Positions 6,152-28,155 of a stretch of DNA of 64,000 nt are shown here, in pieces (the first letter of the stretch is position 1; each line of letters opens with the position of its first letter). Made by a program: the position numbers and the translations under genes. The DNA is from Bryobacterales bacterium (lineage in GTDB: Bacteria > Acidobacteriota > Terriglobia > Bryobacterales > Bryobacteraceae), in NCBI GenBank assembly GCA_963745995.1, contig CAVUZF010000005.1:1266568-1330567 (forward strand), written 5' to 3'. Under the pieces are notes generated by a model. That model did not search any database. It was given only the letters and a program-made list of their open reading frames with translations, and was not told the origin of the DNA.

Positions 6152-6161
6152 CGCTCCTCTC

Positions 6162-7001: not shown

Positions 7002-7013
7002 GTTGGCCCTCCT

Positions 7014-7946: not shown

Positions 7947-7979
7947 GTTTCCCCCGAGTCGCGATCAAAGATGGTGATC

Positions 7980-8545: not shown

Positions 8546-9367
8546 TTAGTAGATCTGGACCACGGCATTGGCGATGATGGTCATGGCCGGCGCCGAATCC
8601 GCCAGCCGCGCGTAGAGCTTGATGTCCTTGGCGGCGATCCGGAAAGGTCCTTTGAGATGGCTATCATCACCTTCAACGATCCACGGTTTCATCCATTGAA
8701 ACATCACACTGTTGGCGCCTCCGGCGGATAGAACCTCAACCAGAATCTTGAGATCGACCCCCAGTTGGTGGGCGGTCGCCAAGGCTTCGGCAATCAAGGC
8801 GCAACTTCCGATCGTGATGAAGTTGTTGACGAGTTTCATCGTCGTCCCCGAGCCCAGCTCACCCGTGCGGATAATCGTATCGGCATAGGTGGAAAAGACC
8901 GGCATGACCCGATCGATAGCTTCCTTCGACCCACCTACGTAGGTACTGACCTTACCCGCCTCAATTTCCTTGGGTGTCCGCCCATTGGGTGCGTCAATCA
9001 TCTGCACGGATCGCGCGGCTAGGTCCGACCCAATCTTTCGCGTGATCCGCGGATCGGCAGTGGTTGAATCGACAATGATCATCCCTGCGCGTGTCGCGCC
9101 CAGGAGGCCGTCGGCGCCATAGACAACCTGTTCAACCTCCTGCGAAGACGGCAGGCATAGAAAAACCACGTCTGATTTGCTCGCGAGTTCCACCACGGAG
9201 GCCGCTTCCGTCGCGCCCCTTTGGACCAGATCGCGAACAGAGTCCTTTGCGTAGGGATCAAACACCGTGAGAGGATAACCTCTGGTCACAATATTCTTTG
9301 CCGCTCCGTGGCCCATGAGGCCAACACCAATGTAGCCAATTCGCAAAGGGTTCTCCGTGGTTTTCAT
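8546..9367 (-). CDS. NAD(P)-dependent 3-hydroxyisobutyrate-dehydrogenase-family oxidoreductase (C-terminus cut by an in-frame TAA)
   Basis: N-terminal Rossmann motif IGYIGVGLMGHGAAKN and a central GSGTTMKLVNN motif. After the TAA at 8546-8548 the same frame continues with LALIKGHANDNMPTLPGILAEL... down to a stop at 8420-8422. That stretch looks like the natural C-terminal helix region. Confidence 0.8.
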   Translation of the reverse strand: MKTTENPLRIGYIGVGLMGHGAAKNIVTRGYPLTVFDPYAKDSVRDLVQRGATEAASVVELASKSDVVFLCLPSSQEVEQVVYGADGLLGATRAGMIIVDSTTADPRITRKIGSDLAARSVQMIDAPNGRTPKEIEAGKVSTYVGGSKEAIDRVMPVFSTYADTIIRTGELGSGTTMKLVNNFITIGSCALIAEALATAHQLGVDLKILVEVLSAGGANSVMFQWMKPWIVEGDDSHLKGPFRIAAKDIKLYARLADSAPAMTIIANAVVQIY

Positions 9368-12818: not shown

Positions 12819-14623
12819 TCACGCCTCGCGGAACAGAATTTGCCGCCGGCAAGGATCCTTCTCGGATATTGAGAGCACATTCAAGTCATTGATCCGGGTA
12901 AGACGAATGCCCGTGGCTTTGGCGCGGAAGCTGCCGGGCCCTTCGGGTGTAAGTTCTGCATCCTGGGGCAAGGCGATTTCCGTTGGTCCCTCATAACCGA
13001 GCACCAGGGGTCCTGAGTGGAAGGCATGATAACCGCGAATACTGTGAGGGTTGAAGGTGTCCAGCGCTCCGGTGACAAGGTCAAAATCGAGCGCGATCAT
13101 ATCGCCCGCGCGCAGGGGGCTTTGCATAGCAACAAATCCGTTGCTTATCTTTGCCGGCACATCTTTGCCGTTGAAGAACAGCCGGTGGGATTTTGTCCAC
13201 GAAGGCGCGGCAAAGCGCACGCGCACCGGCCCGTTCAAGCTCGACGAAATTATTTCCAGCTTGACCTTGCCCTGATAGGGATAGCCCGTCGTCTGGCGCA
13301 GCGTGACGGTCGCCCTCTCCGATCCGGAGCGAGGCCTTGGAATCATGAAAGAAGGGAAGTACGATTTCGCCTGGCCGCGAAAAGTAGGCGGACTCAATAG
13401 CGCGGGCATTCCCCTCGCCACCGCGCATTGTGCAACACCAGTAGGCCTCGTAGAATACGTCCTTGATATAGGGGTCGTGGGCTCCCGCACAGGTGTCAAC
13501 TCCGTATCCACCATTATTTCGCTGGCCACGCCCCATTCCGTTGAAGTAAATCAGGTGGGCGTCTTCCAGATACGCCGTGTTCCACGGTATGACGCCAAAG
13601 CTGGACGGGGATCATGAACGAGTCGATGATGGCACAACATTCGCTCCACTCCGGCCGTTCGAACCAGTTGAAGTTGGCATAAGTCTCGGTCATCGCCTCG
13701 CCAAGGTATAACTTATAGCGTTTCTCGACAGCTTCCAGAAGCTGAGGATCACCGGAATTTTCATACTGGCGAAGGAGCGCCCGCATCCCGGTGAGTGTAG
13801 CGTGCGTCTGGGCTTTAATGGCGATCACGTCCACTTCAAGGAAGCGGGCAATCATTTCGTCGATCACGGCCTTCAGGTCAGCCCCGCCGCGGACTTGATA
13901 GGCGTGCGTTACTCCGTCGAGGAAAATGAAGTCGCACCCGATATCGGAAGAGAGTTTCCAGTTGCCAACACGGGCAACGATCTCCCCCGCGGCGCCGCCC
14001 TGGTGAGACCGGATGGCAGGGTCAATCGGGTAGCTGGAGTGCTGCCCCGCGGTGGGCAGGACGAGGTTCCGGACTATCTTGTCGATCATCTCGAGGACGC
14101 GCTCGTCGTGCTTCCACTCGTAATATTCACACAGCCCGCGCAAGACCCAGCCATGACCCGACAACTGCTGCTCATCGACCGCCTTGGGATCCAGCAGCGG
14201 TCCGAAATATCCCTGACTGTTCATCTTGGCGGGATAAAGGCGCAGAATCTCGTCGAGATACCGGGCCTCACGGTGTGTGCTGCGGGAAAGAAGCGTCAAT
14301 CCCAACACCGTGCGCCCTTCCCAATCGCCGGGCCAGGACTTTGCGGATTCGCTCTCGAACACCATCGGCGGTTGGTAGATGTTGGATTCCAGCCGGTCGT
14401 AATTCAAGTTGGCACGCTGGGCCAAGTCGCCTGCGATCTCTATTCCATCAAAGGACGCAGGGACCCATCGCGATTCACCGGCGGCAGTTGCCTGAGCCAT
14501 CATCGCTGGACAATCCGCAAGAGCCAGCGCGGTCAATCCACTCAAGCAGAAATCCCGCCGCGAAATTCCATGCTGCGCCGCTGCTGTTTTGCCGATCGCC
14601 AAATCATCTCTTCTTTTCGCCAC
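12819..14623 (-). pseudogene. GH127/DUF1680-type beta-L-arabinofuranosidase-like glycoside hydrolase, two frameshifts
   Basis: Tat-type signal SRRDFCLSGLTALALA. Conserved stretches include EWSECCAIIDS, then in a second frame NGGYGVDTCAG...YEAYWCCTMRGGEG, then in a third frame TVTLRQTTGYPYQGKVKLEI...GPLVLGYEG. The frame changes at about 13571-13590 and about 13320-13345. Confidence 0.7.
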
Positions 14624-15009
14624 GGTTGTTCCCCTCAGGTGATTTCTAACTCATGCAGTCTACACCACACCGCAAGACCCCGAGTGCAGCAAATCGGGAC
14701 TATTCCATCCGAGATTAGAGCCAGCCAAACAAAGTGGGACACGGCCCGCCAAAACCCGCATTGACGCATCTTGGCACACTCAAGGCCGGAGGAGCGCCGG
14801 AATAAACGGACAATAAGTCTTCGGCGCGCCCGGGCACTCCTCGGGTGTGCCGCATTCCCGGCACGGGCATTCCGTCCACCCATAGCAATGTCTGGCGAGA
14901 ATATACTTGCACAGAAAATTTTTTTTCATTACTATACACGCGACGTCGAATAATATTTCGCTGCAAGAAAGCGAGATGGAGCAAAACCGGGGAGGGTGAC
15001 GTCAGCAAG

Positions 15010-15879
15010 ATGGACGGTGCGTGTCTCAGTAAAATCCGGGCGGCAATCGAGCAAGCACCCGATGCCACGGTAAAGATCGGGCGCTTTATCCTGAAGAACC
15101 CCTTGCGGGCGCGCAACTTGTCGATTGGCGTTTTGGCAAAGGGGTGTGGCGTCAGCCCCGCTACCGCTTTCAGGTTTTGCCGGGACTTGGGCTACGAGGG
15201 ATACAAGGAATTTCAACTGGACCTGGCGGCGGCGGTGGCTCATAACGACGCGATGGCCCTGGAGGAATTCTCCGAGGACCCCAGCCCGGAGTCCATCGTG
15301 CGCCAGGTGTTTGAGTACAACCGGCGGAGCCTGGCGGAGACGGCGCGCATGCTGGACATCCACGTGCTGGAGCGGGTTGCCCGGCAGCTCCAGGACAGCC
15401 GGCGGAGCATGTTTCTGGGGATTGGGGCCTCCGCGCTGGTGGCTCAATACGCGGGTTTCCGGTTGGTCAGTCTGGGATTCTCAGCGCTCTCCGTCGTGGA
15501 TCCTTACCTGCAAATATTCGCCACCGAAAATGTAGGGCCCGGGGATGTGGTGGTGGGAATCAGCCACACGGGCCAGACCGACCACGTGGTGGAGGCCCTC
15601 CGCACAGCCCGGCGGCGGGGAGCCCGCACCGTGGCCATTACGAATTACCCGCAGTCGCCCCTGGCGGCAGCGTGCCAATTTCAGCTTATCACGGCCTTCC
15701 ACGAGCACCGCATCAACGCCGCGTTCTCGTCCTCCATCACCGCCCAACTGTGCGTTATCAACTCCCTCTTTTTCATTCTAGGCAGTTGGGGTGGGCAAGG
15801 CGCAAAGAAACTGGCTGAGCAAGCGGAGGAGCGTAGCCAAAAGCTGCTGCGAGCGCAGCGTATGAAGAAACGTAAGTAA
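15010..15879 (+). CDS. MurR/RpiR-family transcriptional regulator (HTH_6 plus SIS domain)
   Basis: The N-terminal HTH region reads IGRFILKNPLRARNLSIGVLAKGCGVSPATAFRFCRDLGYEGYKEF. The C-terminal SIS motifs are MFLGIGASALVAQY and VVVGISHTGQT...ARTVAITN. Confidence 0.85.
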   Translation: MDGACLSKIRAAIEQAPDATVKIGRFILKNPLRARNLSIGVLAKGCGVSPATAFRFCRDLGYEGYKEFQLDLAAAVAHNDAMALEEFSEDPSPESIVRQVFEYNRRSLAETARMLDIHVLERVARQLQDSRRSMFLGIGASALVAQYAGFRLVSLGFSALSVVDPYLQIFATENVGPGDVVVGISHTGQTDHVVEALRTARRRGARTVAITNYPQSPLAAACQFQLITAFHEHRINAAFSSSITAQLCVINSLFFILGSWGGQGAKKLAEQAEERSQKLLRAQRMKKRK

Positions 15880-15902: not shown

Positions 15903-17273
15903 ATGTATACAAGGTATTACGACCCAGAGATTTTTGTAAATTGTTTTGAAGGAATCGACCGAACCAACCACATCGTCGCCACCTACTTCATGGAAGACGA
16001 ACTGCCCGGCGAGGATTTTATCGATCACTTTTCGCTGATTCAATCCATGGCGGTTGAAGGCTCCACCGGCACCTGGCAGAAGGTGAAAGAGGAAACCGAC
16101 GAAGTACGGCACATGCTCAGCGGAAAAATGCTGGGTTACTTCGAAATTCCCACCAGCAAGCCCAACTGCCGCGCGGCGGTTGTGCAATTGGCCTTCCCCA
16201 TCGACGCGTGGATTGACAACGTCCCCATGATGCTGCTCAGCATTGCAGGCAACTGTTTTGCCTTCAGCCCCAAGCTCCGGCTGCTGGATGTTTTCATTCC
16301 CGAAAAGCAGTTGGCCAAATTCAAGGGGCCCAAGTTTGGCGTTCCCGGAATCCGCAAGCTTCTGAATGTTCCGGACCGGCCGCTTTCCCTTCACATCATC
16401 AAGCCCAAGATGGGCATGACGCCGCAACAGGTTGCCGACCAGTGCTACCAGACGGCCCTGGGCGGGGCTGACATGATGAAAGACGACGAGATGACCAGCG
16501 ACCTTTACAACAGCAATTTCGAGGATCGCGTGACGGCCGTGGGCAAGGCTCTGGAAAATGCCGAGGCCAAAACCGGAAAACGCCCCATTTATTTCGTGAG
16601 CATCACGGACGAACCACGGCGCATCTTTGCCAAAGCAGCGCGTGCGGTGGAATTGGGCGCTCGGGGCCTGTTGGTCTGTTACTCAGCCGGACTGCCGGTC
16701 ATTCGCCAATTGGCGGAAGATCCCAAGATCAACGTCCCCATTCTCATTCACGCCTCGCACATGATCGCCGCCCAGCCGCGCATTGCCTGGCCGGTCTTTG
16801 CCAAGCTGGTGCGCATTTGCGGTGGAGACCTGATGCTGACGCCCACCTACTGGTCGAGCATTCCGATGGTCAGCCTGGAGGAGGGAATCCGCACCTCGCA
16901 GATTAAGCTGGCGCCTCTTGGGCACATCAAGCCGATGTTCCCCATGCCCTGCGCGGGCGTGTATCCCGGCCTGACGCCTATCCTGATTGGGGAATACGGC
17001 ACGGACATCGTGATTCCTTCCGGCGGCGGCATGCTGGGCCATCCGGACGGCTACACGGCGGGCGCCAAGGCATGGCAGCAGGCCATTGCCGGATCGCTCT
17101 CCAATGAGGACTTCCTGACATTTGCGAAAAAGCCGGAAAACAAGGAACTGCGCCGCGCCATCGAGAAGTGGGGTTATATCGAGCGCCCCAAGACTCCGTG
17201 GCTGCGCGTTTCTCCCAAGTATCAGCCCAAACCCATGAGTTTGGATGTAGCACCATTACGTCGAACGGCGTAA
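15903..17273 (+). CDS. RuBisCO-like protein (form IV RuBisCO large-subunit homologue)
   Basis: 456 aa with RBS GGAGGA. The motifs are collinear with RuBisCO large chain: GNCFAF (N123 region), GVPGIR, HIIKPKMGM (K175/K177), GGADMMKDDEMT (K201-D203-E204), PILIHASH (H294 region), ICGGDLML and SGGGMLGHPDG (GGGxLGHP). Confidence 0.9.
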   Translation: MYTRYYDPEIFVNCFEGIDRTNHIVATYFMEDELPGEDFIDHFSLIQSMAVEGSTGTWQKVKEETDEVRHMLSGKMLGYFEIPTSKPNCRAAVVQLAFPIDAWIDNVPMMLLSIAGNCFAFSPKLRLLDVFIPEKQLAKFKGPKFGVPGIRKLLNVPDRPLSLHIIKPKMGMTPQQVADQCYQTALGGADMMKDDEMTSDLYNSNFEDRVTAVGKALENAEAKTGKRPIYFVSITDEPRRIFAKAARAVELGARGLLVCYSAGLPVIRQLAEDPKINVPILIHASHMIAAQPRIAWPVFAKLVRICGGDLMLTPTYWSSIPMVSLEEGIRTSQIKLAPLGHIKPMFPMPCAGVYPGLTPILIGEYGTDIVIPSGGGMLGHPDGYTAGAKAWQQAIAGSLSNEDFLTFAKKPENKELRRAIEKWGYIERPKTPWLRVSPKYQPKPMSLDVAPLRRTA

Positions 17274-17348
17274 CACTGAGCCGAGATGTCCAATAAAGGT
17301 CCCCCGGCGCGGCGATTTACCACGCTGCGATACTTTAGGGGGACTTCT

Positions 17349-17408
17349 GGAGGGGTGGGGCTTAACCTTTGCTAACTCGTCGGGAGTCCCGCCCTTCCAA
17401 AGTTTTTT
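17349..17408 (+). terminator. Candidate intrinsic terminator downstream of the RLP gene
   Basis: GGAGGGGTGGGGC (17349-17361) can pair with GAGTCCCGCCCTTCC (17384-17398). The roughly 13-bp pairing includes G-U pairs and the loop is large, about 21 nt. AAAG and TTTTTT (17403-17408) follow. Confidence 0.4.
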
Positions 17409-17493
17409 ACCAGATGTAGTACGAAGTCCACAGTTGACCCTTGATGTGCAGGGTCACGTTAAAGTCCAAGAAGTTCCCCGAAGGGGAACAAGA

Positions 17494-17586
17494 TCATTAG
17501 CCGTAGGTGAAACCTACGGGCAGATATTCGACCCCGCAGGGTCGAATATCTGCACGCTTTCCACGGGCTTCACCCGAGGCTAATGA
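17494..17586 (+). other. Cloverleaf-like four-way structured element in the RLP-kinase spacer
   Basis: The outer stem is TCATTAGCC/GGCTAATGA (9 bp). It encloses three hairpins: GTAGG-TGAAA-CCTAC, CAGATATTCGACCC-CGCA-GGGTCGAATATCTG (14 bp, perfect) and CGGG-CTTCA-CCCG. Flanking hairpins are GTTCCCC-GAA-GGGGAAC (17473-17489) and CGGCCCC-TCC-GGGGCCG (17591-17607). Confidence 0.5.
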
Positions 17587-17671
17587 CCTTCGGCCCCTCC
17601 GGGGCCGTGATATTTCCTCAACTTTGACGCGACTCTGCTTGAAGTGAAAGTCCGTATTGCGCGAGGTTCTC

Positions 17672-19159
17672 ATGGTGGATCATCACCGCTTCCTTGCCTT
17701 CGATCTTGGCGCCGAGAGTGGGCGTGCTGTGGTGGGCACCCTGCAGGAAGGCCGCCTTTCCCTCGAAGAGATTTCCCGATTTCCCAACACCCCCGTGCAG
17801 GTTCACGAAACCCTTTATTGGGACGTTCTGGCTCTTTACAACCACATCCTGGAAGGTCTGCGGGAGTATACGCGACGCTACGGCGCCGAGGTGGAAGGGA
17901 TTGGGATTGACACCTGGGGCGTCGATTTTGGACTGCTCTCCGCGCGGGGCGAGTTGCTCCAGAACCCTGTCCACTACCGTGACCGCCGGACGGTCACCAT
18001 GATGGAGCAAGTGAAGTCCCTGATCTCGGCGGAGGAACTGTTTCGTCTTACGGGCATGGCGCTGCTCCCTTTCAATACCTCCCTCCAACTTCTCTCCCTG
18101 CGCTTAACCCGGAATCCGATTCTTGATCGTGCGGCGACGATGCTGATGATGCCGGATCTGTTCGCCTACTTCCTTACCGGGCGGAAGTGCTGCGAACGGA
18201 CGAACGCAATCTCGACGCAATTGCTGGATCCTTGGAAAAGTGAGTGGAGCACGGAGATTGTTCGCAAGCTGGATCTACCGGCGTCGATCTTGCCGGAGCT
18301 CGTGGACCCGGGCACGGTGCTGGGCGATGTGCTCGGCCCGGTGCGGGACGCCGTGGGCCTGAAAAGCGGCGTGGTGATCGCTCCTTGCACCCACGATACG
18401 GGCTCAGCCGTGGCGGCGGTCCCCGGCCAGGGGGATGACTGGGCCTTCTTGAGTTGTGGCACGTGGTCGGTGCTGGGGACGCTGAACCCCGATGTGGTGA
18501 CAACCCCGCGGGCTTATGCCGCGGGAATGTTCAACGAGCTGACGATTCATAGCCGAATTCTCTGCCGCAACATTGTCGGCTTGTGGTTGCTTCAGCAAGC
18601 GCGGGCGGCATGGATGCGGGCGGGCAAATCGTATTCTTATGAAGAAATCGTCAAGCTGGCCGCGCAGGCGCCGGAAGGCGGGCCACTGATCAATGCGGAC
18701 GCGCCGCGATTCCACGCGCCGCAGGATATGCTCGTCGCGATCCAACAGTACTGCGCGGAGACGGGGCAGGCGGTCCCGCAACATCCGGGAGAAACGGCCC
18801 GGTGCATCCTGGAAAGCCTGGCGTTTGCCTACCGCCGGTGGCTGGATGAAATTACCGCGTTGTCGGGCCGTTCCTTCCGCGTGTTGCACTTGGTGGGCGG
18901 GGGTTCAAAGAATTCGCTGCTTTGCCAGCTCACGGCCAATGCCACGGGGCTTCCCGTTATGGCCGGACCTTCCGAGGCAACCGTGGCAGGCAATGTGATG
19001 GTGCAGGCGCTGGCGAAAGGGTTGGTCCGAACGACTCAGGAAATGCGCGACGTTATCGGCCGCTCCTCCGAGCTTGTGGAGTATCAACCTCAGGATGTGG
19101 CAAGTTACCAGCGGCGTTTTGACGAGTATTTGCGCCTGGCGGAGAAGTTTCCGGAGTGA
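17672..19159 (+). CDS. FGGY-family carbohydrate kinase, rhamnulokinase (RhaB)-like
   Basis: Collinear with E. coli RhaB over its length: FDLGAESGR, GIGIDTWGVDFGLL, PVHYRDRRT, PFNTSLQL, LMMPDLFAYFLTG, HDTGSAVAA, LSCGTWSVLG, GLWLLQ and HLVGGGSKNSLLCQLTANATG. Confidence 0.85.
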   Translation: MVDHHRFLAFDLGAESGRAVVGTLQEGRLSLEEISRFPNTPVQVHETLYWDVLALYNHILEGLREYTRRYGAEVEGIGIDTWGVDFGLLSARGELLQNPVHYRDRRTVTMMEQVKSLISAEELFRLTGMALLPFNTSLQLLSLRLTRNPILDRAATMLMMPDLFAYFLTGRKCCERTNAISTQLLDPWKSEWSTEIVRKLDLPASILPELVDPGTVLGDVLGPVRDAVGLKSGVVIAPCTHDTGSAVAAVPGQGDDWAFLSCGTWSVLGTLNPDVVTTPRAYAAGMFNELTIHSRILCRNIVGLWLLQQARAAWMRAGKSYSYEEIVKLAAQAPEGGPLINADAPRFHAPQDMLVAIQQYCAETGQAVPQHPGETARCILESLAFAYRRWLDEITALSGRSFRVLHLVGGGSKNSLLCQLTANATGLPVMAGPSEATVAGNVMVQALAKGLVRTTQEMRDVIGRSSELVEYQPQDVASYQRRFDEYLRLAEKFPE

Positions 19160-19375: not shown

Positions 19376-20059
19376 GTGATTCGAGGAAGGATTGTTGACC
19401 TGAGCCATCGGCTCCGTCCCGGCAAGGAAGAGTATCCGCTCGAACTGGAAACTCATTTCACCGACGAAGTCTTGCCGCAATATCAGCGCGGCGCTGACGT
19501 TTGGTACATCCTCCAGACCATCCACATGTCCTCCCACTGTGGCACGCATATCGAGTTCCCTTATCATCACAACCGCCACGGGCTGGACGCGGGATCGTTT
19601 CCGCTCGAAAGGTTGATGGGTGATTGCCTGCTTCTGAACTTTACCCATAAGCGAGCGGGGGACGCCGAGACCAGTGAGGCCATTACCCTGGCGGAGCTCA
19701 AGGCCTTTGAGGATGAAATCCAGCCCGGAATCATGTTGATGTTCAATTTCAACTGCGCGCAGTACTACGGGACGCCGCGTTCCCATGACCGGCCGCACTT
19801 GACTTATGAGGCGATCGAGTGGCTGGCCCTGGAGAAGAAAATCGGGTTGCTCGGCAGTGACGCATCGGGATTTGAAAAAAAAGGAGTACCCAACCAGCCG
19901 GGCCACCAGATCCTGATGGACCATCAGATTCCCGTCATCGAATCCGCCACCAACCTGGACCAGCTTCGGAAGCGAAAGTTCACGCTGCTGGTGCTTGCCC
20001 TGAGCGTGGAAGGGCTGGATGCCTGCCCAGTTCGTTTGTTGGGGATTGAGGACGAATAA
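19376..20059 (+). CDS. Cyclase-family (kynurenine-formamidase-like) metal hydrolase
   Basis: 227 aa. Contains the HxGTHxD/ExPxH-type motif SSHCGTHIEFPYH. GTG start after GAGAGGAG. Confidence 0.7.
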   Translation: MIRGRIVDLSHRLRPGKEEYPLELETHFTDEVLPQYQRGADVWYILQTIHMSSHCGTHIEFPYHHNRHGLDAGSFPLERLMGDCLLLNFTHKRAGDAETSEAITLAELKAFEDEIQPGIMLMFNFNCAQYYGTPRSHDRPHLTYEAIEWLALEKKIGLLGSDASGFEKKGVPNQPGHQILMDHQIPVIESATNLDQLRKRKFTLLVLALSVEGLDACPVRLLGIEDE

Positions 20060-20075
20060 GAGCGAGACATCTATC

Positions 20076-21029
20076 GTGGAAAAAGAACAAGCCTTTTCGC
20101 TTTATCAGCAGATGGTGCGCATCCGGCGGTTCGAGGAAGAACTCTATCAGCTCTTTCTGAACCGGCCCATGCCCGGAAGCATGCACCAGTACATCGGGGA
20201 AGAGGCCGTGGCAGTGGGGGTTTGTGCGCATCTTACCCGGGAGGATTATGTCACCAGCACCCATCGTGGCCACGGCCACTGCATCGCCAAGGGGGTGGAC
20301 CTGAACGCCATCATGGCGGAGATGTTTGCCAAGAAGACCGGCTGCTGCAAGGGCCTGGGGGGCTCGATGCACATCGCCGACTTCAGCGTGGGAATGCTGG
20401 GGGCCAACGGCATTGTGGGGGCGGGGATTCCCATTGCCACTGGCGCCGGATGGGCTTGCCAGTTGCGCTATCCGGGCCGTGTCTCGGTGGTTTTCTTCGG
20501 GGAAGGGGCAGCCAACGAAGGCGCCTTTCACGAAGGGCTGAATCTGGCCTCGGTCTGGAAACTCCCAGTGGTCTTTGTGTGTGAGAACAATCTGTATAAC
20601 TTCTCCGTCCACTATAAGAAAACGATGGCCCTTGACGATGTTGCGGACCGTGCCGTGGCTTATGGCATTCCCGGCAGGGTAGTGGACGGCATGGATCTGG
20701 TAACGGTCTATCATGCTGCGGGCGAAGCGATCGAGCGCGCGCGAAGGGGAGGCGGCCCGACTTTGCTGGAGTGCAAGACTTATCGATTTATGGGCCATTC
20801 GCGCTTCGAGCCGGCGGGGTATCGCACCAAGGAAGAAGTGGCCGAGTGGAAGAAAAGGGATCCGCTTTTCATGTTTCAGCAAGTACTTATTTCGAAGTTC
20901 CAGGCATCGCCGGCGGATTTCGAGAAGATCGATGCGGACGTCAATCGAGAGATCAATGAGGCCGTGACGTTTGCCGAGCAAAGCCCCGATCCCGCTCCTA
21001 ATGATTACGCGCAGTTCATTTTTGCTTGA
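20076..21029 (+). CDS. Thiamine-diphosphate-dependent dehydrogenase E1 alpha subunit (acetoin/pyruvate dehydrogenase AcoA type), copy 1
   Basis: RIRRFEE..., GGSMH, and the TPP-binding stretch VVFFGEGAANEGAFHEGLNLASVWKLPVVFVCENN. The GTG start was chosen just after the cyclase stop; the ORF is open from 20019. Confidence 0.85.
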   Translation: MEKEQAFSLYQQMVRIRRFEEELYQLFLNRPMPGSMHQYIGEEAVAVGVCAHLTREDYVTSTHRGHGHCIAKGVDLNAIMAEMFAKKTGCCKGLGGSMHIADFSVGMLGANGIVGAGIPIATGAGWACQLRYPGRVSVVFFGEGAANEGAFHEGLNLASVWKLPVVFVCENNLYNFSVHYKKTMALDDVADRAVAYGIPGRVVDGMDLVTVYHAAGEAIERARRGGGPTLLECKTYRFMGHSRFEPAGYRTKEEVAEWKKRDPLFMFQQVLISKFQASPADFEKIDADVNREINEAVTFAEQSPDPAPNDYAQFIFA

Positions 21030-21047
21030 AGGCGAGATGCGTTCACC

Positions 21048-22070
21048 ATGGAAGCCGCCACACTTTCGCAGGCTTTGAGGCAGGCGATTATCGAGGAAAT
21101 GCAGCGCGATGACTCGGTGGTCCTCCTAGGAGAGGACATCGGAGTTTTGGGGGGAGCTTATACCGTGACCTCCGGCCTGCTCGAGATGTTTGGCGGGCAG
21201 CGTGTGCGTGATACACCCATTTCCGAAACCGCCATCGTGGGCGCTGCGGTGGGAGCGGCGATGACCGGCTTGCGCCCGGTGGCGGAGATTCAATTCAATG
21301 ACTTCCTGGCTTGCGCCATGGATCAGGTCTGCAACCAGGCAGCGAAGCTGCGATTCATGATGGGCGGGCAGGTCAAAATTCCCATCGTCATCCGCGCGCC
21401 CATCGGGGCGGTGGGGCGGGCGGCGCAACACTCGCAATCCCTGGAGGCTTGGTTTATGCACACGCCCGGACTGAAAGTGGTGCTGCCCTCCACACCTTAT
21501 GACGCCAAGGGCCTACTGAAGACCGCCATTCGCGACGACAATCCGGTGATGTTCTTTGAGCACAAGCTGCTGTACGGGGCGCGCTCGCCGGGGGGGAAAG
21601 CGGCGACGGCGGTGGGCAGCCTGACCGCAGCATTCCGGCCGGCTCCCCCCGACGATTACACCGTGCCTTTTGGCGTGGCGGATATTAAGCGCAATGGGAA
21701 AGACGTTACGGTGGTAGCGACGGGCTTCATGGTGCACCAGGCGCTTCAGGCGGCGCGGGAATTGGAGAAAGAGGGGATCGACGTAGAAGTGCTTGACCCA
21801 CGAACGCTCGTACCTCTGGACAAAGCTGCAATCCTCAGCTCCGTGCGCAAGACGTCGCGGCTGGTCATCGTGAGCGAAGATGTTTTGACTTGCGGCGTGG
21901 CGTCGGAAATTTCCGCTCTGGTGGCCGAGCACGGCATCTTTTCCCTGGACGCTCCCATCCGCCGGATTTCTGTTCCTGACACACCCATACCCTTCGCGCC
22001 GGCAATGGAACGGGCAGTCGTACCCCAACTTCACCAGATCACCGGCGTGATCAGGGAACTTTTCCATTAG
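21048..22070 (+). CDS. Dehydrogenase E1 beta subunit (AcoB type), copy 1
   Basis: 340 aa. Contains LGEDIGVLGGAYTVTSGL, DTPISETAIVGAAVGAAMTGLRPVAEIQF and a C-terminal transketolase-C-like domain ending PDTPIPFAP. Confidence 0.85.
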   Translation: MEAATLSQALRQAIIEEMQRDDSVVLLGEDIGVLGGAYTVTSGLLEMFGGQRVRDTPISETAIVGAAVGAAMTGLRPVAEIQFNDFLACAMDQVCNQAAKLRFMMGGQVKIPIVIRAPIGAVGRAAQHSQSLEAWFMHTPGLKVVLPSTPYDAKGLLKTAIRDDNPVMFFEHKLLYGARSPGGKAATAVGSLTAAFRPAPPDDYTVPFGVADIKRNGKDVTVVATGFMVHQALQAARELEKEGIDVEVLDPRTLVPLDKAAILSSVRKTSRLVIVSEDVLTCGVASEISALVAEHGIFSLDAPIRRISVPDTPIPFAPAMERAVVPQLHQITGVIRELFH

Positions 22071-22154
22071 GAGCTGTGCCTTGCAGAGGAGCGTCCCAAT
22101 CTGTAGAATCTCGAACGCCCAAGCGCTTCGCAAGGTGGGCGCCGGGAGGCTGGT

Positions 22155-22721
22155 TTGAGTTTCGCTTATATTTTCGATGTTGATGGCGTGCTCCTGAGAA
22201 CCATGAAGGCGCATTTTGCGTGTTACAAGCAGGCCCTGGCGGAGTCAAATGTACCCATCGATAAGACGCAGTTTTACACCCAGGCGGGCATGACCGGGCA
22301 GGAGCAGATCAGATATTTCGCTGAAAAAGCCGGCGTGAAAGTTGACGCGGAAAAGATCTATGTAAGGAAGCGCGAGATTTTTCAGGAGCATAAGGACTCT
22401 GCCGAAGCCATCGACTGCAATGTTGGCTTGCTCAATGTCTTGAAATCCGCGAGGGTTCCCGTGGCGATTGCCAGCGGAAGCTCCCGGAAATCCTGGGTTC
22501 CGCTGCTGGCCAAGTTTGGGATCCAGGCGGATGCGTTGGTGGGGGCGGAAGACGTCAAGCGTGGCAAGCCCCATCCCGACCTTTTCCTTTGCGCAGCGGA
22601 GAAACTCGGAGTCCCACCCGCGAATTGTATTGTCATTGAAGACTCGGAGGCGGGTATTGATGCGGCGAAGGCCGCCGGAATGAAGGTAATGCATTTTTAC
22701 GATAACGTGAACGAAACATAA
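22155..22721 (+). CDS. HAD-IA family hydrolase (beta-phosphoglucomutase / sugar-phosphatase type)
   Basis: TTG start 5 nt after GGGAGG. Motif I is FDVDGVL, motif II is IASGSS, and motifs III/IV are KRGKPHPDLF...VIEDSEAGIDAAKAAG. Confidence 0.8.
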   Translation: MSFAYIFDVDGVLLRTMKAHFACYKQALAESNVPIDKTQFYTQAGMTGQEQIRYFAEKAGVKVDAEKIYVRKREIFQEHKDSAEAIDCNVGLLNVLKSARVPVAIASGSSRKSWVPLLAKFGIQADALVGAEDVKRGKPHPDLFLCAAEKLGVPPANCIVIEDSEAGIDAAKAAGMKVMHFYDNVNET

Positions 22722-22743: not shown

Positions 22744-23721
22744 ATGATCGAAAATCATTTATTCGGAGCGTGCTTGCCGACCTTTGGAAATTGTGCGGAC
22801 CGCTATTGCCTGAGCGGCTATGGTGGGGGCGGCAAGAATATGCAGGAGATGCTGGACTTGGCGACCACGGTCAAGGGTCTGGACGGTCTGGAATTGGTAG
22901 GCAACTGGCATGTGAATGACGAAAACATCCGCGACGTGGCCGCGATGTTCCAGGACCGGGGACTCAAGATTTCCATGTTGGTCCCCGACCTGTGGACGCA
23001 GGCCAAATGGGGCAGGGGAAGCATCGCCGCGCCTGACGCCAAGACGCGCCAAGCCGCGATAGATGAAGTCAAGAAGGTCATGGACTGGGGCGCCGAACTG
23101 GGCTGCCCTTATGTGGATGTGTGGCCCGGTCAGGATGGATTCGACTATGGCTTCCAGGCTGACTACGTCGAAGTCTGGAAATGGCTTCGTGAAGGTCTGG
23201 TGGCCTGTGCGAATCATAATGACAAGGTGCGAGTGCTGGTGGAATACAAGCTCAAGGAGCCCCGCACCCACTGCTTTGTGAACTCCGCCGCCAAGGTGCT
23301 TCTGCTGCTTCAAGGTCTTGACAAAGTGGGTGTGCTGCTGGATATCGGCCATTCCATGGCGGCCGGCGAAAATGCCGCCGAGGCTGCCGCGCTGTTGGCG
23401 AGCTACGGCAAGCTCGATTACCTTCACCTGAACGACAATTATGGCAATTGGGACGACGACATGATCCTGGGGGCCCAGCACCTGGTGGAATATCTGGAAC
23501 TCGTTTACTGGATCAAACGGTTGGGATATAAAGGTTGGCTGACTCTCGATATCTTCCCCTATCGGGAAGATGGCGTCTGCGCGGCGACGCAATGCCGGGA
23601 GTGGATGGCAGCTTTCTTCCGGGCTGTTTGCCGGGGCGGAGTTGAAAACTTTACGGAAGTCATTCAGAGCGGGGATGCTTGCGGCGCGTCGGAACTTGTG
23701 CGGCGGGCGCTGAACATCTAA
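22744..23721 (+). CDS. Xylose-isomerase-like TIM-barrel sugar or sugar-phosphate isomerase/epimerase
   Basis: 325 aa with RBS AAGGAGGAGG. The pattern VLVEYKLKEPRTH ... LLDIGHSMAAGE ... LHLNDNYGNWDDD parallels the metal-ligand pattern of the xylose/L-rhamnose isomerase superfamily. Confidence 0.7.
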   Translation: MIENHLFGACLPTFGNCADRYCLSGYGGGGKNMQEMLDLATTVKGLDGLELVGNWHVNDENIRDVAAMFQDRGLKISMLVPDLWTQAKWGRGSIAAPDAKTRQAAIDEVKKVMDWGAELGCPYVDVWPGQDGFDYGFQADYVEVWKWLREGLVACANHNDKVRVLVEYKLKEPRTHCFVNSAAKVLLLLQGLDKVGVLLDIGHSMAAGENAAEAAALLASYGKLDYLHLNDNYGNWDDDMILGAQHLVEYLELVYWIKRLGYKGWLTLDIFPYREDGVCAATQCREWMAAFFRAVCRGGVENFTEVIQSGDACGASELVRRALNI

Positions 23722-23736
23722 CCGCCCTATGAAATG

Positions 23737-23772
23737 CTTGGAGTGCGGTGGCTGCTGCTACCGCACTCCAAG
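23737..23772. repeat. Hairpin copy of the 19172/19291 inverted-repeat sequence, directly after the TIM-barrel gene
   Basis: CTTGGAGTGCGGT - GGCTGCTGCT - ACCGCACTCCAAG. The stretch GGCTGCTGCTACCGCACTCCAAGG (24 nt) is identical to part of the 19291-19328 arm. Confidence 0.65.
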
Positions 23773-23853
23773 GTTTCATTTATGGTGGTGAGCCGGAGGA
23801 ACGGCGCGACATGTGCCAATATCTCTGACGTGCCACACCAGGAGGGACGATCC

Positions 23854-24943
23854 ATGGCGATCATCGAGCCCTTTGCGGGCGCACCGCACAAAGACCGCTT
23901 CCTGGCGGCCTTGCGTGGGGAGCGCACGGACCGGGTGCCCCATTTCGAAATCCTCGTCGAGGACCAGCATGTTGAGAAGTTCCTCGGCCGGCCCGCCGGC
24001 AACACGCTGGGCGTGGGCGGCGACCCTGCCAAGGGTGCAGCGGCCGCGGAGGGTTGCCGCCCCATGTTTCCGCGCGACTATATTGATCTATGCAGGATCA
24101 CCGGGCAGGATGTGATTGCCCTGGAGGCCATCTGGACGCCTATCAAACACGTTCGGGCGGATGGCACTAAAGGTCCAATTACCGACCGGAGCATCAAGAC
24201 GCGGGCGGACTTCGACCGCATCATTTGGCCCGGCGAGGCCGAGATCGAAGAACGCATTCAGTATGTTCGCGAGTACGTTGCCGCCGCCAAGGGCACGGGC
24301 TTCGGCGTGGTGTTCCTTTGCGCCTCCATTTTCCAGACCCTGTACGAATTTGTCGTGGGCCTCTCCGACTGCATGATCATGGTCATGGAGGACCAGGACT
24401 TCTTTGCGGAGCTGATGTCCCGCTCGGCCGATTACTTTGAGGAAGTGGTGCGGCGCGCCGTGCATGAAGGGGTGGATGTGGTTTTTGCGGCGGATGATTT
24501 TGCCTTCAAAACCGGCTTCTTCGTGCGGCCGGAAATTTTCAGGAAAGCGTGGCGCCCTCATTATGACCGCATCCTGGCGCCGGCTCGCGATGCCAAGGTT
24601 CCCATCGTGTTCCACTCCGACGGGAAGATTGACGAAGGCATCGAGATGCTCGCTGGAAATGGGAGTGAAGGCCATCCACCCCATGGACCCTTCCGGCATC
24701 GATTATCGGGATTACAAGAAGCGATATGGGGATCGCCTGACGCTGTTTGGCAATATCGACATCACCTGGCCGCTCGTCGAGGGGACTCCGGCCGATGTCG
24801 AGCGCGACGTTCGGGATCACATGGAGGCGCTCAAGCCGGGCGGCCGATGGGTTGCCGGCAGCAGCCACAGCATCGTGAACTATATTCCCCACGATAATTT
24901 CGTCACCATGATCAATGCGATCCATAAGTATGGAGCGTATTGA
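23854..24943 (+). pseudogene. Uroporphyrinogen-decarboxylase (URO-D) family protein, one frameshift
   Basis: ATG follows GGAGGG. The N-terminus FLAALRGERTDRVPHFE is a typical URO-D-family start. The frame changes at about 24646-24655, from ...KIDEGIEML to LEMGVKAIHPMDPSGIDYRDYKKRYGDRLTLFGNIDI... in ORF 24437-24943. Confidence 0.7.
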
Positions 24944-24980
24944 GCGCTGTATCCGCAGACGAGAAAAGAGGTAAGGAAAT

Positions 24981-26140
24981 ATGGCTGTTGCCATCAAGCT
25001 GCCCGACATGGGAACCAACGTTGAGGAGTGCAAGCTGCAGACTTGGCGAGTGCAGGAGGGGCAGCGCGTAAAACGCGGCGACGTTCTTGCCGATATCGAA
25101 ACCGACAAGGCCGTGGCCGAACTCGAATCAACCGCGGAAGGCGTGTTGCTGCGCCAAGTGGTAAAAGCCGGCGTCATGGCACAGATGGGTGATGTTCTTG
25201 CTTACGTCGGGCAGCCCGGCGAGTCCGTGCCGGATCCCGCAGCCGCAGGCATCAGCGGCGAGTGGTGCGGCTGCCCCGGCTCCCGCCGCGTCTCGGCCGC
25301 AAACCGCAATCGCGCCCGGCACGCCAGCGCGGGTTTCACCCATGGTTCGCAATCTGGCGGCGAAGATGGGCGTTGATCTCGCCGCCATTCGCGGGACCGG
25401 CGCGGGAGGCATGATCACGCGCGAGGACGTCCTTAAAGCCAGCCGCGCCACGCCCAGCGCGCCATCCGCGCCGGCGGCGGGCGAGCAGCCTTCCCGGGGG
25501 CAAGCTGCGGTGGCGCGAGCGGTCACGCAAAAGTTGGAAGGAAACGCCGCACCTGTATGTTTCCATGAGCATCGATATGACCGCCGCCGTGAAGGCCCGG
25601 GGTGATAAAGATGCAACGGGCACGCGGCCCAGCTTTGATGCCATCTTTCTGAAGGCCCTGGCGCGGGCGATTGGCGCCGTGCCTGTTGTCGCTGCCCGGT
25701 GGGAAGGCGATCGAATCGTCAAAACGCCGGGAATCCACATCGCGCTGGCGGTGGGTTTCGGAAACGATCTGTTTCTGCCGGTTATTCGCGATGTGAACCA
25801 GAAGAACCTCTTGACTCTGCAAGCAGAGATCGCCGCTGTTTCCGCCAGTGTTCGCGCCGGCTCGCTGAAGCCCGAACAGATGACGGGCGGTTGCATGGCT
25901 TTAAGCAACCTGGGAATGTATCCCGTGGAAGCATTCGAGGGTATTATCTTTCCCGGGCATAGTTCGATTCTGACCGTCGGGACCGTGCGCGAGACGCCGG
26001 TGGTGGTGGAGGGTCGAGTGGAAATCCGGCCGCTCGCCAAGGCTACGCTGGCGGCGGACCATCGTTTGATCAACGGGCGAGTGGCGGCGGAATTTTTGAC
26101 CAAAGTTAAGGAAGTCCTGGAAGCAGGAGATCTTGGGTGA
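24981..26140 (+). pseudogene. Dihydrolipoamide acyltransferase E2 (lipoyl domain, E3/E1-binding domain, catalytic domain), two frameshifts
   Basis: The lipoyl domain carries DIETDKAVAELES. In a second frame lie an Ala/Pro linker and VSPMVRNLAAKMGVDLAAIRGTGAGGMITREDV. In a third frame lies the catalytic domain, ending ATLAADHRLINGRVAAEFL. Shifts sit at about 25230-25265 and at the A run 25529-25532. Confidence 0.8.
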
Positions 26141-26160
26141 CCCCAACAGGGAGTGTAGGA

Positions 26161-27121
26161 ATGACTTACGACAAAGAATTTCTTCTATCACTTTACAAAA
26201 GGATGGCGCTGATCCGCCACTTTGAGGAACGCGTCAAGTTTCTGTTTCTGGAAGGCGTGATGCCCGGCACCATCCATCAGTACAACGGCCAGGAAGGCGT
26301 TGCCGTGGGCGTGTGCAGCGCGCTCAAGCCGGGCGACGTTATCACCAGCACGCACCGTCCGCACGGCCACGCGCTGGCGCGAGGGTTGAGCGTGGAATCG
26401 CTGATGCACGAGCTGTTCGGCAAGACCACCGGATGCTGCAAAGGCAAGGGTGGCTCGATGCACATGGGCGACCTGGATAAGGGCATGGTGCCCGCCGTCG
26501 CCATCGTGGCCGGGGCGATTCCCATGGCGACGGGTATCGCCCTGGCCATGAAGATGAAGAAGCAGCCGAACGTGGTGGCCTGCTTCATGGGCGACGGCGC
26601 GGTGAATGAGGGAGCGTTTCACGAAGGCGTGAACATGGGCTCCATCTGGTCAGTCCCGATCATTTACGTCATCGAGAACAATCTCTACTCAGCATCGACG
26701 CCCATTTTCGATATGGTGCGTGTAAAGAAGCTCTCTGACCGCGGCGCGGCGTACGGCATTCCCGGCGTAACGGTGGACGGCAACGATGTGTTGGCGGTGC
26801 ATGAGGCGGCGCGGGCTGCCATCGACCGCGCCCATCGCGGCGAAGGTCCCACGCTGCTCGAGTGCATGACCTATCGGATCACCGGCCACTCGCGGCGCGA
26901 TCCTTGCAACTATCAGCCTGAGACGGAACGGAAGAAAGCGCTCGAGAATGAACCCATCCGGCGCTTTCGCAGCTACCTGCTCGACCAAGGGCTGGCGACA
27001 GAGGACGACGTGACAAGAGTCGATGGTGAGAATTGAAGCGGAAATTGAAGCGGCCGTCAAGTCAGCAATGGCGGCGCCAGACCCAGCGCCCGAAGCGGCT
27101 CTGGAAGATCTTTTCGTGTGA
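26161..27121 (+). pseudogene. Dehydrogenase E1 alpha subunit (AcoA type), copy 2, C-terminal frameshift
   Basis: LIRHFEERV, GGSMHMGD and CFMGDGAVNEGAFHEGVNMGSIWSVPIIYVIENN. The ORF stops at 27036, but the +1 frame continues with RIEAEIEAAVKSAMAAPDPAPEAALEDLFV to the stop at 27119-27121. This is the expected C-terminus. The shift sits at about 27015-27030. Confidence 0.8.
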
Positions 27122-27135
27122 GGAGTGCAAAGAGC

Positions 27136-28155
27136 ATGGCACGGTTAACGATTGCGGAAGCGTTGCGTGAGGGGTTGCGGGACGAGATGATCCGCGACCC
27201 GCGGGTTTTTTGCATTGGCGAGGACATCGGGATTCGCGGCGGCTGGGGCGGGGCATTTACCGTCACCCTCGGCCTGGAGCAGGACTTTCGGAACCGGATC
27301 ATCGACACGCCGATCTCCGAAGCCGGCATTTTCGGCGTGGCCCTGGGGGCGGCGGTGATGGGCTTGCGGCCGGTCGCGGACGTCCAGTATGGAGACTTCC
27401 TATTTTGCGCCATGGACCAGGTGGTGAATCAGATCGCCAAGATGCGCTACATGTCCGGCGGAAAGCTCACCGTGCCGCTGGTGATGCGCGCCCCCGTTGG
27501 CGCTACGGGCCGCGGCGCCCAGCATGGACAGAATCTGGAATCGTTTTTCCTCAGCGTGCCGGGGATCAAGATTGCCTGTCCTGCCACCGCCTATGACGCC
27601 CTGGGAATTCTCCGGGCGGCGATTCGCGATGACAATCCGGTGCTGATGTTCGAGCACAAACTGCTGTACGGGGCCAAAGGCGCGCGCGCGGAATCCGACT
27701 CGGTTGATGCTTCCAGCGAAATTCCGGCGGAGGATTACGTCGTGCCGCTGGGCAAAGGCATCATCAGGCGGGAAGGAACCGACGTCACGATTATCGCAAC
27801 GCTCCTGATGATGCATCGGGCGCTCCAGGCCGCGGAACAGTTGGCGGGGGAGGGCATCAGCGCCGAGGTGATCGATCCTCGCAGCCTCGTTCCTTTTGAC
27901 TGGGACCTGGTGAAGGCTTCGGTGATGAAGACCACGCGGGCGGTGATTGTTGAGGAAGGCCCCAAGCGCGGCGGCTGGAGCGCGGAAATCGCCGCCACCC
28001 TGGCGGAGTCGATGAGCGACTACCTTACCGCGCCCGTCATGCGCGTCGCCTCGCCTGACATTCCGGTACCGTTTGCTCCGCCCATGGAAAAGTTCTACCG
28101 GCCTGATTCCAAACGCGTTGTCGAGGCCGTGCGCACTTTGGTTGTGCCCGCATAG
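27136..28155 (+). CDS. Dehydrogenase E1 beta subunit (AcoB type), copy 2
   Basis: 339 aa. Contains IGEDIGIRGGWGGAFTVTLGL, DTPISEAGIFGVALGAAVMGLRPVADVQY and SPDIPVPFAPP. It is paralogous to 21048-22070. Confidence 0.85.
   Translation: MARLTIAEALREGLRDEMIRDPRVFCIGEDIGIRGGWGGAFTVTLGLEQDFRNRIIDTPISEAGIFGVALGAAVMGLRPVADVQYGDFLFCAMDQVVNQIAKMRYMSGGKLTVPLVMRAPVGATGRGAQHGQNLESFFLSVPGIKIACPATAYDALGILRAAIRDDNPVLMFEHKLLYGAKGARAESDSVDASSEIPAEDYVVPLGKGIIRREGTDVTIIATLLMMHRALQAAEQLAGEGISAEVIDPRSLVPFDWDLVKASVMKTTRAVIVEEGPKRGGWSAEIAATLAESMSDYLTAPVMRVASPDIPVPFAPPMEKFYRPDSKRVVEAVRTLVVPA

Follow-up and report, generated by a model that had tools for sequence, protein, structure and literature searches.

What does a homologue of the RuBisCO large chain do in a Bryobacterales bacterium in which its gene is followed by a sugar kinase and by the components of a 2-oxoacid-dehydrogenase-type complex? 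This question is raised by an intact, uninterrupted open reading frame (ORF) of 456 amino acids at positions 15903-17273 (+) of a 64,000-nucleotide stretch of contig CAVUZF010000005.1 (assembly GCA_963745995.1), hereafter referred to as the window. The ORF encodes a RuBisCO-like protein (RLP) and constitutes the sole RuBisCO-family gene of the 5.7-Mb genome, which is assembled in five contigs with an estimated completeness of 79.5%. To our knowledge, only a few RLP functions have been established, namely those of the MtnW enolase, the DeepYkr isomerase and the enzymes of the apiose pathway. The residue pattern and the gene linkage described below suggest, at about even chances, that RLP acts as a Mg2+/carbamyl-lysine-dependent enolising isomerase on a ketose 1-monophosphate, probably L-rhamnulose-1-P or L-fuculose-1-P, the product of which would be cleaved by the E1/E2 enzymes of the same operon.

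Family membership and active-site pattern

The gene is preceded by a ribosome-binding site (GGAGGAG, 7-13 nucleotides ahead of the ATG), and its product matches the Pfam families RuBisCO_large (PF00016, E=7.7e-37) and RuBisCO_large_N (PF02788, E=3.3e-10), both above the gathering scores. Membership of the RuBisCO large-chain superfamily, which is characterised by an N-terminal alpha+beta domain and a C-terminal catalytic TIM-barrel domain, is real and far beyond chance. An AlphaFold2 model, which was built from a 14-sequence alignment and reached a predicted local distance difference test score (pLDDT) of 66.9, falling below 50 over residues 312-381, was used for a fold search with Foldseek and yielded template modelling (TM) scores of 0.70-0.75 to RLP and RuBisCO structures.

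In RuBisCO, K201, D203 and E204 act together with K175 and H294 in the enolisation of a 2-keto-3-hydroxy substrate. The C1 phosphate is held at the proximal site (P1) by T65, W66, G381 and G403/404 and the C5 phosphate at the distal site (P2) by R295, H298 and H327, and K334 of loop 6 stabilises the addition of CO2. These residue roles reportedly go back to structural and mechanistic work of Andersson in 1996 and of Cleland et al. in 1998. The corresponding positions of RLP were assigned with reference to spinach RbcL (100% identical to PDB 8RUC/1IR1) by a MAFFT alignment of RLP, 117 homologues, spinach RbcL and two MtnW structure sequences, as well as by a HMMER alignment to the MtnW structures. 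All positions listed in the following are invariant or nearly so in the 118 clade members.

The residues kept in RLP are E52 (spinach E60), T57 (T65), W58 (W66), N117 (N123), K167 (K175), K169 (K177), K193 (K201), D195 (D203), E196 (E204), H283 (H294), G352 (G381) and G374/G375 (G403/G404). The initial annotation of the gene had listed K175/K177, K201/D203/E204, N123 and H294 as retained, which is borne out by the spinach-referenced alignments of the 118 homologues, and the motifs that it quoted (IIKPKMG, MMKDDE, GNCFAF, IH, GGGMLGHP, ICGGDLMLTPTYW and PCAGVYPG) are all in their places. The carbamyl-lysine/Mg2+ triad of K193, D195 and E196 is invariant in the 118 homologues together with K167. 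Judged by this pattern, RLP appears to keep the full enolisation machinery, comprising a predicted carbamylated Lys193, the Asp195/Glu196 Mg2+ site, Lys167, Lys169, Asn117, His283 and Glu52, and likewise the putative proximal P1 phosphate site formed by Thr57, Trp58, Gly352 and Gly374/375.

Other positions are replaced: I165 stands for T173, A284 for R295, M287 for H298 (with H286 one residue earlier), L310 for H325, L312 for H327, C350 for S379, A351 for G380 and Y354 for H383. In addition, loop 6 contains a six-residue insertion (TPTYWSSIPMVSLEEG) and is devoid of Lys within residues 310-329; depending on gap placement, spinach K334 pairs with L325 or a Ser of RLP, and Leu/Met/Ile or Ser is found across the clade. 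Lys334 is absent and loop 6 remodelled in 118/118 clade members. The alanine following the H294 equivalent and the loss of H327 and K334 had been recognised correctly from the sequence. The same holds for the loss of S379, though the register then proposed was off by two residues: PMPCAGVY corresponds to PVASGGIH, so that Cys (115/118), not Gly, takes the place of the serine. The distal side and the Lys334 position thereby seem to be refilled with mostly hydrophobic residues (Ala284, Met287, Leu312, Tyr354). Since the enolisation core and the P1 site are kept and the P2 site and the carboxylation lysine are lost, the predicted substrate is a ketose 1-monophosphate whose far end is non-polar, and carboxylation is not expected. 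Enolate chemistry on a phosphorylated ketose, as first proposed for this protein, fits the K175/K201/D203/E204/H294 core, the kept P1 site and the adjoining ketose kinase.

The assignment to form IV, that is, to proteins other than carboxylases, likewise stands, with K334 and the entire R295/H298/H327 site absent, no equivalents of R295, H327, K334 and S379 in the alignments and the K201/D203/E204 triad retained. In tests for a bona fide RuBisCO, Lys334 was found to be absent, the distal phosphate site R295/H298/H327 was changed to A284/M287/L312, and the scores against the curated hidden Markov models (HMMs) NF003252 (205 bits, cut-off 438) and NF010002 (105 bits, cut-off 489) remained low. 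By its sequence, RLP is almost certainly no carboxylase, and this reading was rejected because Lys334 and the P2 site are absent. CO2 chemistry in a wider sense, be it that of a monophosphate carboxylase or of a beta-keto-acid decarboxylase like the apiose-pathway RLP OiaX, would be in line with the fact that RLP keeps more RuBisCO catalytic residues (E60, N123, K175, K177, K201, D203, E204, H294) than the MtnW and Photo clades compared, with apiosidase-like genes near seven copies and with the presence of Lys334 in sister lineages. Nevertheless, it is very improbable in view of the loss of Lys334 and the remodelling of loop 6 in every clade member, a score of 118 bits against the OiaX model NF042437 (cut-off 700) and a kinase of the ketose type, no acid-sugar (DUF1537-type) kinase being present among the recurrent neighbour families.

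Placement among RuBisCO-like proteins

For the clade analysis, 1.84 billion representatives were searched exhaustively, and a tree and a table of the residue patterns of the individual sequences were drawn up. On this sequence basis, RLP is a member of an uncharacterised ('orphan'), strongly conserved and well-supported form IV clade, a placement made relative to the labelled MtnW and Photo clades. The core clade groups with lineages of 55%, 48% and ~40% identity (supports 0.998, 0.997 and 0.966). Its pattern reads ETWNIKKKDEH, followed by AMLSCAGY; the first 11 positions (E60 to H294) match the tree representatives with a RuBisCO pattern, and beside these 11 diagnostic positions all P2 and loop-6 positions are replaced. 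In this agreement lies the resemblance to form III RuBisCO (for example, 1GEH of Thermococcus kodakarensis and 2CWX of Pyrococcus horikoshii); R295, H298, H327, K334 and S379 are all replaced in RLP, for which no sign of a bisphosphate substrate is found.

None of the curated family cut-offs for MtnW, form III and OiaX is reached by RLP, which scores 255.5 bits against NF007095 (MtnW, cut-off 409), 211.3 bits against TIGR03332 (MtnW, cut-off 513.6) and 214.7 bits against TIGR03326 (form III, cut-off 497). Likewise, ten representatives of the sister lineages remained below every cut-off of the curated HMMs, and most of the RLP diversity sampled here has no match to any curated functional family. 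Classification by clade HMMs, which had been suggested as a check, in combination with the residue pattern hence points to an orphan clade and not to YkrW or the apiose pathway. A match of 430 bits to the C. tepidum RLP (1TEL/1YKW) served to label the Photo clade, which carries E123, N177, F295 and R334 and is separate (support 0.978), so that RLP fails the IV-Photo test by both residue pattern and clade. The nearest solved structures to RLP are MtnW enolases, with Photo RLPs and form III RuBisCOs almost as near. Two unlabelled RLP lineages that were queried against the PDB also found MtnW-type structures as best matches and no distinct DeepYkr structure.

The closest characterised relative is accordingly MtnW/YkrW (IV-YkrW), the 2,3-diketo-5-methylthiopentyl-1-phosphate enolase (PDB 2OEK, 2ZVI, 4NAS), with a sequence match of 1e-58; 2OEK is also nearest in fold (TM 0.75/0.82), with 30-31% identity in the structural alignment. 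Both proteins share K175, K201, D203, E204, H294, the changes T173 to I, H327 to L and G380 to A, as well as G381 and G403/404, and both are devoid of the P2 site and Lys334. On the contrary, MtnW carries Lys123, Met/Val177, Gly60, Ser379 and His383, where RLP has Asn, Lys, Glu, Cys and Tyr, and RLP, unlike MtnW, features an extra conserved C-terminal tail and an operon of sugar kinase and E1/E2 genes instead of methionine-salvage genes. The MtnW clade is separately monophyletic (support 1.0, 14 leaves), with Lys at position 123 in all members and the pattern G-[TSGA]-W-K-I-K-x-K-D-E-H-P, which corresponds to Gly60, Lys123 and a residue other than lysine at 177; together with the RLP clade, it falls within one supported supergroup of 58 leaves (support 0.954). 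Imker et al. are said to have identified Lys98 of the Geobacillus kaustophilus MtnW, the residue at position 123, as catalytic base in 2007. The description of the RLP pattern as a "classic" enolase or isomerase signature therefore does not hold: RLP has the RuBisCO residues at all three of the positions where MtnW has Lys123, Met/Val177 and Gly60, its scores lie far below the MtnW, form III and OiaX cut-offs, and its lineage is set apart from both MtnW and Photo RLPs.

These data bear on the possibility that RLP is an MtnW-type enolase for a 2,3-diketo-1-phosphate, either in methionine salvage or on a sugar-derived diketone, which would be supplied by an MtnB-like dehydratase of the class II aldolase family and passed on to a HAD phosphatase. 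MtnW provides the best HMM and PDB matches as well as the nearest fold, the supergroup is common to both, MtnA is encoded in the genome, and HAD phosphatases as well as class II aldolase-family genes (10 loci) occur near some copies. This reading is nonetheless quite improbable, as Asn occupies position 123 in 118/118 homologues as opposed to Lys, the catalytic base, across the MtnW clade and in both MtnW references, both MtnW models are missed by a wide range of bits, and the MtnW clade is monophyletic on its own. Moreover, HAD genes are found in only 7% of loci and class II aldolase genes in 10/80. The methionine-salvage context (mtnK/A/B/X/D) is not present at the RLP operon, MtnA lies on another contig, and ARD/MtnD was not found in the genome, which is 79.5% complete. 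A role in methionine salvage was rejected on the grounds of Asn117, the HMM cut-offs, the gene context and the missing MtnD.

Beyond the core clade, the 55%-identical sister lineage has the same operon partners, and more distant sister RLPs (39-48%) also adjoin FGGY kinases. Sister RLPs at 38-40% identity (L101, L102 and further sequences of the tree) possess Lys334, have lost R295 and H327, and lie near FGGY kinases, the partners being UPF0261 and creatininase in one case and a 2-phosphosulfolactate-phosphatase-like protein and HAD in the other. These lineages represent further uncharacterised RLP functions.

Gene neighbourhood and candidate route

Linkage was counted in the 55 loci that span 12 kb or more. 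The most frequent partners of the clade are E1alpha (82%), E1beta (80%), the TIM barrel (76%) and the lipoyl E2 (69%), followed by RpiR and the FGGY kinase (64% each), the URO-D-like protein (25%) and an LsrF-like protein (15%). The gene directly 3' of RLP encodes FGGY, E2, TIM barrel or E1alpha in 55/67 scorable loci, and RpiR lies directly upstream in 30/64 loci with enough upstream sequence. The features of the window are compiled in Table 1.

Table 1. Motifs of RLP and genes of the surrounding operon, in window coordinates.
Feature	Position	Strand	Remarks
RpiR-family regulator (HTH_6 and SIS phosphosugar-binding domain)	14845..15879	+	23 nucleotides upstream of RLP
EGSTGTW (E52/T57/W58), N-domain	16056..16076	+	E 116/118, T 105/118 (S in 12), W 117/118
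GNCFAF (N117)	16248..16265	+	N 118/118; Lys in MtnW enolases
IIKPKMG (I165, K167, K169)	16395..16415	+	invariant in clade
MMKDDE (K193; putative Mg2+ ligands D195/E196)	16473..16490	+	invariant; carbamylation predicted
LIHASHM (H283, A284, M287 beside H286)	16743..16763	+	
GGDLMLTPTYWSSIPMVSLEEG (L310, L312; remodelled loop 6 with 6-residue insertion, no Lys334)	16821..16886	+	T313, P314, T315, W317, V323 and E327 invariant in clade
PMPCAGVY (C350, A351, G352, Y354)	16941..16964	+	C 115/118
GGGMLGHP (G374/G375)	17022..17045	+	
C-terminal extension past the end of the aligned MtnW sequences	17175..17273	+	R428, W433 and R435 invariant in clade
FGGY kinase, RhaB/FucK type	17657..19159	+	TIGR02627 rhamnulokinase, 418 bits (cut-off 528)
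Accessory module: cyclase-family hydrolase, E1alpha-1, E1beta-1, HAD phosphatase	19376..22721	+	
Xylose-isomerase-like TIM barrel (AP_endonuc_2), candidate aldose-ketose isomerase	22744..23721	+	PDB 3KTC, 188 bits
URO-D/MtaA-like protein, accessory	23734..24897	+	25% of loci; no PDB sequence match
Lipoyl E2 acyltransferase, split over three reading frames	24981..26140	+	
E1alpha-2/E1beta-2, pair dependent on thiamine pyrophosphate (TPP)	26137..28155	+	accompanies the RLP clade in 80-82% of loci

Several clues point to a 6-deoxy sugar. Among solved structures, the kinase comes closest to the L-fuculose kinase 4C23 (324 bits) and next to the L-rhamnulose kinase 2CGJ (270 bits), two enzymes that phosphorylate C1 of 6-deoxy-L-ketohexoses, and it is the sole RhaB-like kinase of the genome. 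In a presence/absence comparison of six genomes, comprising four RLP-positive genomes of the class and two RLP-negative ones of the same genus, the only RhaB-like kinase adjoins RLP in 4/4 RLP-positive genomes and the two RLP-negative congeners have none; E. coli-type RhaA was found in 0/6 of the genomes compared. The four class II aldolase-family genes of the genome reach neither the RhaD nor the FucA nor the MtnB cut-off. With only 4/151 genomes of the class being RLP-positive, the number is too small for a statistical test of aldolase anticorrelation. In addition, L-rhamnose mutarotase occurs in five loci and a FucI-like isomerase in four, RhaT lies 10 kb upstream of RLP in the window, and a GH106 rhamnosidase-family gene is present in the homologous locus L007. 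The PDB matches of the TIM barrel after 3KTC are xylose and L-rhamnose isomerases.

The E1alpha protein is of the PDH/2-oxoacid heterotetramer type, with 180 bits to the human pyruvate dehydrogenase (PDH) E1alpha and scores just under the PDH equivalog cut-offs. The clade-wide E1 partner corresponds to the second E1 pair of the window, not the first, and the two distinct pairs appear to share one E2. In the window, this E2 (24975-26140) is distributed over a lipoyl domain at 24981-25376, an E3-binding domain in ORF 25165-25605 and a catalytic domain in ORF 25415-26140. The split would need two frameshifts, located in Ala/Pro-rich linkers, and homologues have an intact E2 of 439-459 amino acids. 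This copy may represent a pseudogene or reflect assembly indels; the split E2 together with a completeness of 79.5% in five contigs suggests indel errors typical of long-read assemblies.

From the family membership, the residue pattern and its conservation, the separateness of the clade and the gene linkage, all of which are established here, we infer substrate, isomerase reaction and cleavage products as follows. The TIM-barrel isomerase would convert an aldose to the ketose, which the RhaB/FucK-like kinase would phosphorylate to the ketose-1-phosphate (L-rhamnulose-1-P or L-fuculose-1-P). RLP would then abstract the C3 proton by means of its carbamate/Mg2+ site, giving a Mg2+-bound 2,3-enediolate, and reprotonate the latter in such a way that the carbonyl leaves C2 toward the deoxy end by a 1,2- or 1,3-isomerisation, as in the R. 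rubrum RLP. Subsequently, TPP-dependent E1alpha/beta would cleave the alpha-hydroxyketone phosphate beside the new carbonyl and the acyl moiety would be transferred via the lipoyl E2 to CoA, in place of the usual class II aldolase step. A 4-keto isomer would yield glyceraldehyde-3-P and lactyl-CoA, a 5-keto isomer tetrose-4-P and acetyl-CoA.

The proposed carbonyl shift parallels the DeepYkr reaction on 5-methylthio-ribulose-1-P (PMC5893883). The R. rubrum enzyme catalyses the 1,3-isomerisation of a ketose-1-P, 5-methylthio-D-ribulose-1-phosphate (PMC5893883), and RLP1 of Rhodospirillum rubrum and Rhodopseudomonas palustris (IV-DeepYkr) thus offers a functional precedent for an enolising carbonyl shift on a ketose 1-monophosphate with a non-polar tail (PMC5893883). 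DeepYkr RLP1 works in the methylthioadenosine (MTA)-isoprenoid shunt beside a cupin methylsulfurylase, and no such partners are recognisable at the loci of the RLP clade; annotation of the larger clusters among the recurrent neighbour families of 80 loci revealed no cupin family. As for the subsequent cleavage, the E1alpha-beta and lipoyl E2 of acetoin dehydrogenase and PDH-type complexes provide a pathway analogy in the oxidative thiolytic cleavage of an alpha-hydroxyketone to acyl-CoA and an aldehyde, and the Lsr system (LsrK-LsrG-LsrF) provides another, in which an FGGY kinase and an isomerase are followed by thiolytic release of acyl-CoA from a phosphorylated diketone.

The same 2,3-enediolate might meet another fate, with RLP acting as a C3 epimerase of the ketose-1-P or as a lyase, which by beta-elimination of either the C1 phosphate or the C4 hydroxyl would give a deoxy-2,3-diketone for cleavage by an acetoin/diacetyl-type E1. 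Such an outcome would draw on the same kept enolisation core. RuBisCO is known to lose phosphate from the enediolate by beta-elimination in a side reaction, E1/E2 enzymes of the acetoin dehydrogenase type act on alpha-hydroxyketones and diketones, and 15% of loci encode an LsrF-equivalog thiolase, the substrate of which is a 3-hydroxy-2,4-dione phosphate. However, elimination of the phosphate would squander the ATP spent by the kinase, the strict conservation of the P1 site suggests that the phosphate is retained and not expelled, and an epimerase alone would leave the tight E1/E2 coupling unexplained. The sequence offers nothing to tell the epimerase and lyase outcomes apart, and either appears unlikely.

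Several observations weigh against an isomerase acting on rhamnulose- or fuculose-1-phosphate. FGGY is absent from 36% and the TIM barrel from 24% of well-flanked loci, and the TIM barrel, whose relationship to proven rhamnose and xylose isomerases is only distant (80-90 bits), could instead have a phosphorylated intermediate as its substrate. Genes of the class II aldolase family in 10/80 loci indicate that the route is not strictly aldolase-free, and apiosidase-like genes in seven loci as well as URO-D/B12-type genes hint at other or methylated sugars. Cys350, near-invariant in the clade, is Ala in the 55%-identical sister lineage with the same partners. The assignment of the P1 and P2 sites and the role of Lys334 are carried over from published RuBisCO structures and not derived from a model of RLP, and the AlphaFold model is of low confidence exactly at residues 312-381, the loop-6/beta-7 region. 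Moreover, all 80 loci listed derive from metagenome-derived assemblies, and gene absences are provisional in a genome of only 79.5% completeness.

Further features of the loci are the following. The spacer between RLP and the kinase (17274-17656) measures 383 nucleotides, compared with a gap of 8-131 nucleotides in homologous loci (L003, L001). The accessory module of cyclase-family hydrolase, E1alpha-1, E1beta-1 and HAD recurs in L051, L061 and L084. A divergent accessory module is located at 5163-8939 (-) of L001 and also occurs in L007, L036, L038, L039, L054, L070 and L082; it combines a thiolase that qualifies as an LsrF equivalog (494 bits, cut-off 297) with a ribulose-phosphate-3-epimerase-like gene and a short-chain dehydrogenase/reductase that resembles the RhaW portion of RhaEW, and in the Armatimonadota loci E2 lies next to these genes. 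This module reinforces the tie of the RLP operon to a theme of thiolytic cleavage of phosphorylated hydroxy-diketones. In L099 (7180-8954), which belongs to a sister RLP lineage of 48% identity, a URO-D-like gene directly follows a protein with a B12-binding domain, which suggests that the URO-D-like proteins common in these clusters belong to the corrinoid methyltransferases of the MtaA type and might serve to demethylate O-methyl sugars. Upstream of RLP, positions 5123-9367 (-) of the window encode a RhaT-like transporter, Amidohydro_2, a FAH-family hydrolase and a 3-hydroxyisobutyrate-dehydrogenase-like protein, a set with the appearance of a partial non-phosphorylative route for deoxy-sugars (rhamnose/fucose) near the RLP operon. 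At 12819-14623 (-), only the middle domain of GH127 (aceric-acid-hydrolase-like) is recognisable, in a 236-amino-acid ORF, and the adjoining long ORFs match no Pfam family; a glycosidase gene with a frameshift is the probable explanation.

Distribution and implications

RLP homologues of 62-91% identity extend across ~20 phyla and occur in at least 162 genomes of the species-representative set. The hosts belong to Acidobacteriota, Armatimonadota, Omnitrophota, Planctomycetota, Spirochaetota, Bacteroidota, Chloroflexota, Verrucomicrobiota, Hydrogenedentota, Latescibacterota, Aerophobetes, Atribacteria, Actinomycetota, Clostridia and others. Within the class of the host, the gene is present in 4/151 genomes and two congeneric genomes are without it; this patchy presence is in line with an accessory catabolic module that has spread horizontally and is subject to strong purifying selection. 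Two separate RLP-E2-E1 clusters are found in one metagenome-assembled genome with L011 and L022 and in another with L071 and L073.

The host range also bears on the idea that RLP is an oxygenase, the enediolate of which attacks O2. RuBisCO enediolates do react with O2, but many hosts belong to lineages generally held to be anaerobic (Omnitrophota, Atribacteria, Aerophobetes, Brocadiaceae, sediment Spirochaetota), and the E1/E2 coupling would be left unexplained, so that an oxygenase is extremely improbable.

With respect to the pathway as a whole, it is possible, though tentative, that the RLP clade and its dedicated E1alpha-beta/lipoyl-E2 form an undescribed, largely aldolase-independent route for 6-deoxy-hexoses (L-rhamnose, L-fucose and O-methylated forms), which might be widespread in uncultured glycan-degrading bacteria of soil and sediment and would split the sugar phosphate directly into a glycolytic phosphate ester and an energy-rich acyl-CoA without free lactaldehyde. 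We know of no case in which such an E1/E2 complex acts on a sugar phosphate or is supplied by an RLP. Likewise, a full-text search of the literature found no such E1/E2 complex acting on a sugar phosphate or fed by an RLP, no paper with the RLP-E1/E2 pairing and nothing that describes this RLP clade or its operon.

Taken together, the clade stands out by an identity of at least 62% over ~20 phyla, by a RuBisCO core that is more complete than in the MtnW and Photo clades compared, and by its tie to TPP- and lipoate-dependent E1/E2 enzymes. The residue map provides targets for mutagenesis (K193, K167, K169, N117, H283, C350, Y354 and the loop-6 residues W317/E327), and the operon offers coupling enzymes. 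If the proposed isomerase function is true, the RuBisCO superfamily would gain a new reaction, a 2-oxoacid-dehydrogenase-type complex would for the first time be seen to act on a sugar phosphate, and a missing route of deoxy-sugar turnover in peat, soil and sediment communities would come to light.

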